Shown: piece by piece, positions 57,401 through 60,400 of the stretch
Layout of the letters: each line of letters opens with the position of its first letter
Numbering within the stretch: position 1 is the stretch's first letter
Assembly: GCF_013122565.1 (NCBI RefSeq)
Contig: NZ_CP053258.1
Strand: one strand, 5' to 3'
DNA: 64,000 bases
Origin: Escherichia coli
Lineage (GTDB): Bacteria > Pseudomonadota > Gammaproteobacteria > Enterobacterales > Enterobacteriaceae
Made by a program: the position numbers

Positions 57401-60400
57401 CGCTGGCTGCCCGCCGCTGGAGTTCATGCAGGTACGCGGCATGTTAAAAGGCTTTATCGACCTTGTGTTCCGCCACGAAGGGCGTTATTACCTGCTCGAT
57501 TATAAATCCAACTGGTTGGGTGAAGACAGTTCGGCTTACACCCAACAGGCTATGGCAGCGGCAATGCAGGCACACCGCTATGATCTGCAATATCAGCTTT
57601 ATACCCTGGCGCTGCATCGTTATCTGCGCCATCGCATTGCTGATTACGACTATGAGCGCCACTTTGGCGGCGTTATTTATCTGTTCCTGCGTGGCGTTGA
57701 TAAAGAACATCCGCAACAGGGGATTTACACAACCCGACCCAACGCCGAGTTGATTGCCCTGATGGATGAGATGTTTGCCGGTATGACCCTGGAGGAGGCG
57801 TAATGAAATTGCAAAAGCAATTACTGGAAGCTGTGGAGCACAAACAGCTACGCCCGCTGGACGTGCAGTTTGCCCTGACCGTAGCGGGAGATGAACATCC
57901 TGCCGTCACCCTCGCGGCGGCACTATTAAGTCATGATGCCGGAGAGGGACACGTTTGTTTGCCGCTTTCACGACTGGAAAATAACGAGGCGTCGCATCCG
58001 CTGTTGGCGACCTGTGTCAGTGAAATCGGTGAGCTACAAAATTGGGAAGAATGCTTGCTGGCTTCACAAGCGGTCAGCCGGGGAGATGAACCAACGCCGA
58101 TGATCCTCTGTGGCGATCGTCTTTATTTGAATCGCATGTGGTGTAACGAACGTACGGTGGCACGCTTTTTCAACGAAGTGAATCATGCCATTGAGGTTGA
58201 TGAAGCTCTACTGGCGCAAACCCTGGACAAACTTTTTCCAGTAAGCGATGAAATTAACTGGCAAAAAGTTGCGGCGGCAGTGGCGCTGACGCGGCGGATC
58301 TCGGTGATTTCCGGCGGCCCTGGCACCGGTAAAACGACCACCGTGGCGAAGTTGCTGGCAGCGTTAATTCAAATGGCCGACGGCGAACGCTGCCGTATCC
58401 GTCTGGCTGCACCAACGGGTAAAGCTGCCGCGCGCTTAACCGAATCTCTCGGCAAGGCTTTGCGACAGTTACCGCTGAGCGATGAACAAAAGAAACGCAT
58501 TCCGGAAGATGCCAGTACTTTGCACCGATTGCTGGGTGCACAGCCGGGTAGCCAGCGTTTACGTCATCATGCCGGTAACCCGCTGCATCTTGATGTGCTG
58601 GTGGTAGATGAAGCGTCAATGATCGATCTGCCGATGATGTCGAGACTGATAGACGCCTTGCCCGATCATGCGCGAGTGATCTTTCTCGGCGATCGTGATC
58701 AACTGGCCTCGGTTGAGGCGGGGGCTGTGCTGGGCGATATTTGTGCTTATGCCAATGCCGGCTTTACCGCCGAGCGTGCCGGGCAGTTAAGCCGCCTGAC
58801 GGGAACTCACGTTCCGGCAGGAACTGGCACAGAAGCGGCATCTTTGCGCGACAGTCTCTGCCTGCTGCAAAAAAGCTATCGTTTCGGCAGCGATTCTGGC
58901 ATTGGTCAGTTAGCTGCGGCGATCAACCGTGGTGATAAAACGGCAGTGAAAACCGTTTTTCAGCAGGATTTTACTGATATCGAAAAACGGCTTTTACAGA
59001 GCGGCGAAGATTATATTGCGATGCTTGAGGAAGCTCTTGCGGGTTACGGACGTTATCTGGATCTGCTGCAAGCGCGTGCCGAGCCGGATTTAATCATTCA
59101 AGCGTTCAATGAGTACCAGCTTTTGTGCGCCCTGCGGGAAGGGCCGTTTGGCGTGGCTGGACTGAATGAGCGAATTGAGCAGTTTATGCAACAGAAGCGC
59201 AAAATTCATCGTAATCCGCACTCTCGTTGGTACGAAGGCCGACCGGTGATGATTGCCCGTAATGACAGCGCGCTTGGGTTGTTTAATGGCGATATCGGTA
59301 TTGCGCTGGATCGCGGGCAGGGGACGCGCGTCTGGTTTGCGATGCCGGACGGCAATATTAAGTCTGTGCAACCGAGTCGTTTGCCAGAGCACGAAACTAC
59401 GTGGGCGATGACGGTACATAAATCGCAGGGATCGGAGTTCGACCATGCGGCGTTGATTTTGCCGAGCCAACGCACGCCGGTAGTAACGCGAGAGCTGGTT
59501 TATACCGCGGTGACCCGCGCGCGTCGCCGTCTGTCGCTGTATGCCGATGAGCGCATATTAAGTGCGGCAATCGCCACTCGTACTGAGCGGCGCAGTGGTC
59601 TGGCGGCGTTGTTTAGTTCACGGGAATAAACGTAATTGCCGGATGCGACGTACGAGTGTTACGCATGTCGCATCCGACGATTTTCATCGCTTACCCTAAA
59701 TCAGCCATCAACACTTTGGATTTACGCTGGTAGTTGTACAACTGCTTTTTGCTTTCGGGCAGTAAATCAATATCCACTGGGGTAAATCCACGTTCCTGGA
59801 ACCAGTGAATACTGCGCGTGGTCAGCACAAACAATTTGCTTAAGCCGCTCTGCTTCGCCTGAGCGGCAATGCGTTCCAGCAGAACCTCGCCCCGTGATGA
59901 GCTGCGGTAATCCGGGTGAACTGCCACACAGGCCATTTCCCCAATCTTCTCTTCCGGGAACGGATAGAGCGCGGCGCAGGCAATAGTCGTGTTATCGCGC
60001 TGAATAATGGTGAATTTGTCGATTTCCATCTCCAGCTGCTCGCGAGAACGGCGTACCAGAATACCTTGCTGCTCCAGCGGGCGAATCAACTCCAGAATAC
60101 CGCCGATATCGTTGATTGTTGCGCGACGAATCTGCTCGGCGCTTTCCATCACAATCTGCGTACCGATACCGTCGCGTGAGAACAACTCTTGCAACAGCGC
60201 GCCATCTTCCTGATAACTGATTAAATGACAGCGACGCACGCCGCTGCGGCAGGCTTTCACTGCGCCACGCAAAAAGCGCACCGTACCGGAGTTGTAATCG
60301 CCTTTCTCTTCCTGGGCTTCTACCCGCGCTTGTGCTTCGTTAGGGAAAAGTTCGGAGACAATATCACCGTCGTCATTAGTGACGCCCTGGGAAGAGCAAA

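Follow-up and report, generated by a model that had tools for sequence, protein, structure and literature searches.

What ends the transcripts of recD and argA, two convergent genes of Escherichia coli, and where did the hairpin between their stop codons come from? The question was addressed in a stretch of E. coli DNA of 64,000 nucleotides, referred to here as the window. A preliminary description had noted a perfect 10-bp inverted repeat in the gap between the two genes, had called it REP-like, and had proposed a bidirectional terminator or an mRNA-stabilising element. The hairpin is quite probably the decayed remnant of a REP/BIME element, known in the K-12 catalogue as REP207, which was shortened by deletions and at which the transcripts of both genes acquire their 3' ends.

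Such a hairpin is an ordinary feature, and this one had already been catalogued in E. coli. By itself the result means little: that a REP-derived hairpin stands at the shared 3' boundary of recB-recD and argA is routine annotation, here confirmed. A modest added value lies in the alleles of the locus, a natural series with a triple BIME at one end, then a single BIME, an 81-bp form and a 61-bp form, and weakened or perfected stems at the other. One could use it to compare how large a part of a REP is required for bidirectional termination and for recognition by a transposase.

The hairpin between recD and argA

The recD/argA pair is annotated as such in 5,425 of 5,426 complete E. coli genomes. 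The stop codons of the two genes are separated by a spacer of 61 bp, which is 100% identical between the window and K-12 MG1655, and is also identical in O157:H7. K-12 coordinates are obtained by subtracting the window coordinate from 3010264. The hairpin is extragenic and lies in the 3' UTR that the two genes share, with 10 nt between the recD stop codon and the core stem (59630-59639) and 14 nt between the core stem and the argA stop codon (59677-59690). Both distances are shorter if the extended stem is considered.

The perfect inverted repeat is present as described, with two exactly complementary arms 17 nt apart (Table 1). A repeat search extends the arms to 59634-59654 and 59662-59682, giving 21 nt each at 81% complementarity with 7 nt between them, and ranks this hairpin first, as the strongest of the 22 short-range inverted repeats in the window. 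It was also said to fill the short gap between the genes. The hairpin does lie in the gap, but does not occupy all of it: the core takes up 37 of the 61 bases and the extended stem 45.

Table 1. Coordinates of the recD-argA junction and of the parts of its hairpin, in window positions.
Feature	Position	Strand	Basis
recD, coding sequence with TAA as stop codon (59627-59629); 3' gene on the recB-recD transcript	57803..59629	+	ORF list; annotation; K-12 recD (2950635-2952461) maps here
Overlap of both convergent transcripts, 52 nt, mapped bidirectional terminator	59633..59684		Harris et al. 2026, Table S16 row 233; spacer identical to K-12
REP head motif GCCGGATGCGACG, head of a z-type iREP	59638..59650	+	13/13 against GCCKGATGCGRCG; alignment to the heads of full z2 iREPs from other Escherichia
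Left arm of the perfect 10-bp inverted repeat, CGGATGCGAC	59640..59649		Sequence
Interval between the perfect arms, 17 nt, with imperfect extra pairs; apical loop of 7 nt at 59655-59661	59650..59666		Folds and repeat search
Right arm, GTCGCATCCG, exact reverse complement of the left arm; remnant head of a y-type REP	59667..59676		Alignment to full y REPs (...CACGCCGCATCCGGC) of E. whittamii and E. coli SCPM-O-B-8794
G replaced by A (CCGGCG to CCGACG), a derived change confined to the K-12/window allele	59677		Allele comparison and folds; outgroups have G
Short U-tract (TTTT) past the hairpin in the recD direction	59681..59684	+	Sequence; T at 5 of the 8 positions that follow the extended stem
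argA coding sequence; stop codon at 59691-59693	59691..61022	-	ORF list, translation, annotation

A chance origin of the 10-bp repeat is unlikely. When the 61-bp spacer was shuffled 200,000 times with its composition preserved, a perfect inverted repeat of at least 10 bp with a loop of 3-20 nt appeared in 91 shuffles, or about 5 in 10,000. RNA from the + strand folds at -22.5 kcal/mol (z = -4.1) and RNA from the - strand at -27.5 kcal/mol (z = -6.3); 0 of 200 shuffles folded equally well. The A at 59677 produces a C-A mismatch in the stem of recD-sense RNA and a G-U pair in argA-sense RNA, and the folds indicate that the substitution weakens the recD-sense stem.

Two further searches concerned the surroundings. 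A second exact copy of the left arm occurs at 57991-58000, inside the recD coding sequence; it is within chance expectation and was set aside as a coincidence. An Rfam scan of positions 59000-60300 at E <= 10 gave only two chance matches resembling snoRNAs, and no known structured RNA family.

Transcript 3' ends

The proposal of a bidirectional terminator agrees with published data. In Table S16 of Harris et al. (2026), row 233 is an overlapping bidirectional terminator at K-12 2950580-2950631, assigned to argA:recB:recD, classed as Convergent and linked to REP207; its overlap measures 52 nt, its energy is -27.5 kcal/mol, and it was seen in both log and stationary phase. Mapped by identity onto the window, argA-sense 3' ends lie at 59633 and recD-sense 3' ends at 59684 (K-12 2950580), flanking the stem as the preliminary description would predict. 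The table is a secondary one in a 2026 preprint, built on a published SEnd-seq list of bidirectional terminators, and in data of this kind true termination and trimming by exonucleases are indistinguishable. The supplements of Adams et al. (2021), which hold independent 3'-end data, mention neither argA nor recD.

The two ends differ in their sequence context. RNA in the recD sense ends after ...ACGAUUUU, in a run of UUUU and 8 nt beyond the core stem; 5 of the 8 nt after the extended stem are U. RNA in the argA sense ends after ...GGCAAUUA, 5 nt past the stem and without a proper U-tract, the tail in this direction (AAUUACGU) having 3 U in 8 nt. A scan for consensus terminators left the main hairpin uncalled under its loop and stem rules, and returned only a 5-bp sub-hairpin at chance level.

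The following mechanism may be proposed. The RNA of either strand would fold into a stem-loop that is stable and rich in GC, and the transcripts of both directions would stop just beyond it. On the recD side the end resembles that of an intrinsic terminator. Since the argA-sense end has no proper U-tract, termination or 3'-end formation on this side probably needs help beyond the hairpin. Such help might come from pausing induced by the hairpin combined with head-on collision of polymerases, or longer transcripts might be trimmed as far as the hairpin. A 2022 preprint has put forward a model of RNA polymerase collision for convergent terminators in which a stem-loop is required.

A REP that lacks its foot

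The label REP-like proved apt when the hairpin was compared with the REP consensus. The head pattern GCCKGATGCGRCG has only two matches in the window, one of which is the fully matching head between recD and argA, and the identical K-12 locus is listed as REP207. According to Harris et al. (2026, Table S16, after the REP names of EcoCyc), REP207 overlaps the terminator region by 13 nt; judging from this overlap, the head is probably the part annotated as REP207. The palindrome measures 37 nt, inside the range of about 29-37 nt for E. coli REPs, and in alignment its right arm corresponds to the head of a y REP.

Other hallmarks are missing. REPs of E. coli are defined by a GTAG foot (CTAC on the opposite strand) and an AA-GC mismatch (Ton-Hoang 2012; Bachellier). 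Neither GTAG nor CTAC occurs at 59620-59700 in the window allele, and a search for the REP tail CTTATCMGGCCTAC that tolerated as many as 2 mismatches gave no match anywhere in the 64 kb. There is no AA-GC bulge: the lower stem is the perfect 10-bp repeat, and the GATAAG half is found in neither arm. At megablast sensitivity, a 69-nt query made from the spacer hits exactly 1 place per genome, in contrast to a canonical query of y REP plus z2 from the same locus of another strain, which hits a median of 9 and a maximum of 20. Only the 13-nt head is common to the spacer and the REP family. On these sequence features the hairpin classes as a non-canonical REP, single-copy and with neither foot nor bulge.

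The RefSeq annotation of K-12 has 0 repeat features at the locus, and the copy consulted lists REPs nowhere in the genome. This absence is uninformative because a control, the yaaX-yaaA spacer with its clear z2 and y REP sequences, is likewise unannotated.

Alleles and origin

Comparison of E. coli with other Escherichia places nested deletions of 20 bp in a BIME made of a z2 iREP and a y REP. E. whittamii has three full BIME units at the locus. E. coli SCPM-O-B-8794 carries a degenerate z2 iREP and a full y REP. An allele of 80/81 bp, with a complete z2 iREP and only the head of the y REP, is found in E. albertii, Escherichia sp. MOD1-EC7003 and the E. coli strains E2348/69 and AGR5151. Most E. 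coli have the 61-bp allele. The GTAG/CTAC foot is retained in longer alleles (E. whittamii, SCPM-O-B-8794, MOD1-EC7003).

The stem has persisted through these changes. All 13 E. coli alleles examined have kept the outer stem through two deletions and several substitutions, and for either strand of every allele compared the folding energy lies between -22 and -31 kcal/mol. The stem of NU14 contains a mismatch (-23.6); through a T-to-G change in the left head (GCCTGATG to GCCGGATG) it becomes the perfect 17-bp stem of SCU-105 (-29.8).

These alleles suggest that an ancestral unit of z2 iREP, linker and y REP lost both of its tail halves by two nested deletions, each about 20 bp long. The heads left over, being complementary to each other, would then pair, so that the hairpin was retained while the GTAG and the bulge needed by the REP transposase were gone. 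The order of the deletions is deduced from few outgroups and from an alignment with ambiguous gap placement. The reverse polarity, in which the short allele is ancestral and 20 bp were inserted later, was considered and rejected as unparsimonious, for the extra 20 bp are exactly a matching REP tail; in addition, the locus has a longer form in all four Escherichia outgroups.

A stronger version can be put forward tentatively, with the chances slightly against it: a BIME was pared down to a minimal head-to-head hairpin by two deletions of about 20 bp that took exactly the two tails, and with them everything the transposase recognises, while the stem was kept and later perfected by the T-to-G change. 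If true, this would be a small, datable case of a selfish repeat fixed as a terminator of its host, with all intermediates still segregating in Escherichia.

With each of two derived changes, the one at 59677 in K-12 and one of the O145 type, a G-U pair is preserved in argA-sense RNA alone. Strand-specific selection was considered for this bias and dropped; two events are too few to serve as evidence.

The same junction in other species

Hairpins at this junction extend beyond Escherichia. Of 67 other enterobacterial species whose spacer has at least 16 bp, 61 carry in it a perfect inverted-repeat core of 6 bp or longer, often from an unrelated sequence family; in most other genera it is an unrelated hairpin that occupies the spot. 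Among 74 resolved species, 7 have a spacer below 16 bp and no hairpin, and a hairpin is therefore non-essential at the junction.

The preliminary description had expected a core-genome feature. Its ordinariness is borne out, with a REP in 207 of 704 convergent gene pairs of E. coli (about 30%) and 78 REPs in 306 bidirectional terminators. The term core-genome suits the position of the hairpin better than its sequence, because the REP207-type sequence is polymorphic within E. coli and unconserved outside Escherichia.

Alternative explanations

The hairpin might act mainly as a barrier to 3'-to-5' decay: transcription would end inside the opposing gene, possibly by way of Rho, and the RNAs would be trimmed to the foot of the stem. 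This is compatible with the main explanation and does not exclude it; as an account of the locus it has a real but minor chance of being right. Rho-dependent transcripts have been described with steady-state ends at stable stem-loops, 24% at REPs, together with a trimming hypothesis (Dar and Sorek 2018), and REP325 is both a terminator and a stabiliser. The argA-sense end, so close to the stem and lacking a U-tract, also fits trimming. The recD-sense end, however, lies in UUUU at the distance from the core stem that intrinsic termination predicts. Moreover, in the supplement of Harris et al. (2026) REP207 appears just once, in the sheet of bidirectional terminators, and is absent from the REPs at or near Rho-binding sites, and terminal REPs genome-wide are not associated with longer mRNA half-lives. 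Alternately, the hairpin may lower translation, with ribosomes stalling at the stop codon of recD, argA or both, followed by mRNA cleavage and tmRNA rescue, the mechanism of Liang, Rudd and Deutscher. Their rule of less than 16 nt from stop codon to REP (2015, as summarised in a citing paper) agrees with the distances of 10 nt for recD and 14 nt for argA. The effect, however, was shown for canonical REPs on selected genes, and the recD-argA locus is missing from the RepRanger supplements; this reading is improbable.

It is still harder to credit the hairpin with a role at the level of DNA, as the substrate or binding site for TnpA-REP (RAYT), gyrase, IHF or Pol I that BIMEs can be. The element does derive from a BIME, other Escherichia lineages have canonical, tandemly amplified units at the locus, and copy number and structure vary by strain as is typical of BIME loci. 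Yet the GTAG/CTAC foot and the AA-GC mismatch are both needed for binding and cleavage by TnpA-REP and both are absent, so the RAYT version is already largely refuted; there is no long linker to house an IHF site, and the spacer occurs once per genome, unlike the canonical BIME query. Finally, the palindrome could be a neutral leftover without function, in a region where transcripts would end regardless. The seven related species that have almost no spacer and no hairpin are in line with this, as is the polymorphism in E. coli. Against it stand the 3' ends exactly at the hairpin on both strands, the outer stem kept in all 13 alleles, and the unrelated hairpins that take the same spot in most other genera, and the idea seems very doubtful. 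A REP remnant that helps to set both 3' ends, with selection putatively keeping its stem, is the preferred explanation.

Relation to known elements

REPs and BIMEs of E. coli (y, z1, z2). The hairpin resembles these in being extragenic, GC-rich and palindromic, in lying between convergent genes, in its head GCCGGATGCGACG, and in its apparent descent from a z2-iREP and y-REP unit that is intact in other Escherichia. It differs in that both arms are head halves, which makes the lower stem perfect, with no foot and no bulge; being single-copy at megablast sensitivity as well, it is predicted not to be a substrate of TnpA-REP.

REP325. This element between yjdM and yjdN is a dual terminator and stabiliser and is likewise a REP-derived 3' UTR hairpin proposed to limit read-through and block decay. 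It has 12 canonical palindromic units, lies between tandem genes and is partly Rho-dependent, whereas REP207 consists of one degenerate hairpin and separates convergent genes.

Rho-independent terminators. In the recD direction a GC-rich stem is followed by UUUU, and the 3' end falls 8 nt past the core stem, where 7-9 nt is canonical. The U-tract, however, is short and interrupted; the long stem, of 12 pairs and an upper helix, contains an internal loop; and the argA direction has no U-tract.

Overlapping bidirectional terminators found by SEnd-seq (Ju et al. 2019; 2022 collision preprint). The exact recD-argA site is on the published list and nothing sets it apart from the other members: the genes are convergent, the 52-nt overlap is centred on the hairpin, and two growth phases are represented. 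The flanking sequences are unequal (4 A upstream, 3 U downstream), and the recD side looks more like an intrinsic terminator than the argA side does.

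The hairpin and its terminator

The genes recD and argA are convergent, and are annotated so in 5,425 of 5,426 complete E. coli genomes. In the window they are separated by a 61-bp gap. This gap holds a perfect 10-bp inverted repeat, CGGATGCGAC-(17 nt)-GTCGCATCCG, exactly as the preliminary description had it. If mismatches are tolerated, the arms grow to 21 nt each (81% complementary, 7-nt apical loop), and the structure ranks first among short-range inverted repeats in a search of the whole 64-kb window. The predicted RNA fold has an energy of -22.5 kcal/mol (z = -4.1) on the + strand and -27.5 kcal/mol (z = -6.3) on the - strand. 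None of 200 shuffles reaches such stability, and a perfect inverted repeat of at least 10 bp arises in 91 of 200,000 spacer shuffles.

Positions of features at the recD-argA junction and of other repeats in the window
Feature	Position	Strand	Source
recD ORF	57803-59629	+	ORF list
argA ORF	59691-61022	-	ORF list
Perfect 10-bp inverted repeat	59640-59676		Sequence
Mismatch-tolerant arms	59634-59654 / 59662-59682		Repeat search
Published terminator overlap region (K-12 2950580-2950631)	59633-59684		Harris et al. 2026, converted
Third exact copy of CGGATGCGAC, within recD coding sequence	57991-58000	-	
AT-rich inverted repeat	62516-62550		
Strong inverted repeat	47775-47810		
Strong inverted repeat	23141-23175		

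The third copy of CGGATGCGAC is probably due to chance, since shuffles give match numbers in a range that includes the window's own. The region 59300-60000 finds its best match among the 5,426 genomes at 99.4% over 701 bp. None of the 13 other E. coli sequences compared has the synonymous argA change of the window (GCT not GCG, Ala, at 59704). The strain from which the window comes is therefore missing from the complete genomes searched.

Used as a 69-nt query, the spacer shows 100% identity with K-12 MG1655 and O157:H7; a K-12 coordinate equals 3010264 minus the window coordinate. In their Table S16, Harris et al. 2026 (bioRxiv 10.64898/2026.03.23.713779) bring together the REP coordinates of EcoCyc and 306 bidirectional terminators taken from a published, sequencing-based list. 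Row 233 of the table gives a 52-nt overlap region, classed as convergent transcription in a gap region and seen in both log and stationary phase. The RNA is UGAAAAUCGUCGGAUGCGACAUGCGUAACACUCGUACGUCGCAUCCGGCAAUUACGU (-27.5 kcal/mol), the affected genes are argA:recB:recD, and the REP entry reads REP207, Convergent, with an overlap length of 13. After conversion, the recD-sense 3' end lies at 59684, directly past ACGAUUUU and 8 nt after the core stem; the argA-sense end lies at 59633, past GGCAAUUA and 5 nt after the stem. Transcript ends do map to the hairpin, and this row supports the proposal that it is a bidirectional terminator. Observation and interpretation in the preliminary description are both upheld: the hairpin is already known, being listed both as a REP and among the mapped bidirectional terminators. 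Because 207 of 704 convergent E. coli gene pairs have a REP and 78 REPs fall within bidirectional terminators (Harris et al. 2026), it belongs to a common class and does not stand out in it. The K-12 RefSeq record annotates no repeat features at recD-argA; a control locus with obvious REPs likewise has none, so this is uninformative.

A relic rather than a canonical REP

What can be added to prior knowledge is one point: the hairpin of the K-12 type is no canonical REP but a degenerate "head-to-head" remnant of a BIME, a unit of paired REPs (here a z2 inverted REP, or iREP, and a y REP). E. coli REPs are defined as 29-37-nt imperfect palindromes with GTAG at the foot and an AA-GC mismatch bulge, both conserved and both needed by the REP-associated transposase to bind and cleave the element (Ton-Hoang et al. 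2012; Corneloup et al. 2021). The hairpin fits the REP head pattern at every position (GCCGGATGCGACG, 13/13) and its locus is catalogued as REP207, which agrees with the earlier label "REP-like", but no GTAG, CTAC or GATAAG half was found in it. It is also single-copy: the 69-nt query has one copy in every genome, whereas a canonical y-REP plus z2 query from the same locus of another strain has a median of 9 matches per genome. The 13-nt overlap in Table S16 suggests that the curated REP207 annotation covers the head alone.

The hairpin is unlikely to serve as a transposase substrate, since it lacks both the GTAG and the bulge that this would require.

Decay of a BIME in Escherichia

The natural alleles of Escherichia document the decay of a BIME into the K-12-type hairpin. 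Alleles within E. coli were compared, together with the equivalent spacer from 80 enterobacterial species. In a MAFFT alignment the Escherichia alleles differ by deletions that are nested in one another, each of about 20 bp. SCPM-O-B-8794, a divergent "E. coli" representative, has a degenerate z2 iREP and a full y REP. The 80/81-bp spacer of E. albertii, Escherichia sp. MOD1-EC7003 and E. coli E2348/69, F11 and AGR5151 keeps a complete z2 iREP and the y REP head only. In the 61-bp spacer of most E. coli, the z2 tail is lost as well. The deletions leave an iREP head facing a REP head; since REP heads are alike in sequence, these two are complementary and pair into a near-perfect hairpin.

Allele counts among the 5,426 genomes are approximate, since a few percent of genomes fall into more than one megablast set. 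The K-12/window type of 61 bp is found in about 2,124 genomes (1,693 if at least 99% identity to the 69-nt query is required), other 61-bp variants (the SCU-105 family) in about 2,759, the 81-bp allele in about 650 and a 237-bp duplication allele in about 131. Substitution of G for T in the left head (GCCTGATG to GCCGGATG) abolishes the sole mismatch and gives a 17-bp perfect stem, with fold energies of -23.6 kcal/mol in NU14 and -29.8 kcal/mol in SCU-105. A G-to-A change at 59677 in the K-12/window lineage weakens the recD-sense stem, while the argA-sense RNA retains a G-U pair. The probable order is the second deletion, then T-to-G, then G-to-A.

The sister species E. whittamii (locus L016) shows copy-number expansion of BIME units. 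Its 286-bp spacer holds three near-identical tandem BIME-2-like units, each a z2 iREP (TGCCTGATGCGAYGCTGGCGCGTCTTATCATGCCTAC), a short linker and a y REP (GTAGGTCGGATAAGGYGTTCACGCCGCATCCGRC).

The 237-bp allele (430-668 in loci L002 and L004, E. coli EC21Z-147 and AST85) is a tandem duplication of the spacer together with the final ~40 bp of argA (CGCTTACCCTAAATCCGCCATCAACACCTTTGATTT), with diverged copies and a canonical y REP (GTAGGTCGGATAAGGCGTTCACGCCGCATCCGAC) plus a GATGAGCGTCAA linker at the junction. Its structure suggests a duplication associated with a BIME, in which a gene's 3' end was taken up.

How the transcript ends may form

On the reading with the most support, the hairpin sets the 3' boundary of both recD-sense and argA-sense transcripts. 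Read in the recD direction, the site is built much like an intrinsic terminator: a strong stem is followed by UUUU, and the mapped end lies within the U run. The argA direction has no U-tract, and its end is therefore better explained in other ways. Hairpin-induced pausing may combine with head-on polymerase collision, as in the published collision model; alternatively, as has been hypothesised in the literature, exonucleases may trim the RNA back to the protective stem. The intrinsic-like, collision and trimming readings do not exclude one another. Rho involvement is weakly disfavoured, since the sheet in the Harris et al. 2026 supplement that lists REPs located at or close to Rho-binding sites does not include REP207. 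The stem starts 10 nt past the recD stop and 14 nt past the argA stop; these distances also agree with the distance rule for REP-mediated ribosome stalling, a putative further effect at both stops.

The junction in other enterobacteria

Loci could be resolved in 74 of the 80 species. In seven (L071, L087, L048, L070, L043, L046 and L037; Atlantibacter and others) the spacer is below 16 bp, and the stop codons, 1-15 bp apart, leave no space for a hairpin. These species would appear to handle convergent recD/argA transcription without one. Among the 67 species with spacers of at least 16 bp, a perfect inverted repeat of at least 8 bp is found in 39, a 6-7-bp core in 22 and weak repeats only in 6. 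Enteric REP motifs occur in the spacers of 22 species; Enterobacter, Kosakonia, Klebsiella and others have unrelated GC-rich hairpins. A hairpin at this junction is thus the rule and not a necessity, and its sequence has been replaced repeatedly.

A very large REP array lies at the same junction in Citrobacter sp. NCU1 (L034), where BIME-like units of ~80 bp (GTAGGCCGGATAAGCGTTAGCGCCATCCGGCGATGTGCC...) follow one another in tandem 3' of argA over more than 800 bp.

Other inverted repeats

The AT-rich repeat in the table is perfect over 14 nt (ATTTATTCAATGAA / TTCATTGAATAAAT, 7-nt loop). It lies just 3' of the stop of a + strand ORF ending at 62507 (an amiC homologue) and is possibly a terminator or operator. 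Of the two strong repeats listed, one is GGGCAATGCAGGCG / CGCCTGCATTGCCC (14 nt, perfect, 8-nt loop) and the other GAATGGTTCAAAATTG / CATTTTTGAACCATTC (16 nt, 94% complementary, 3-nt loop).
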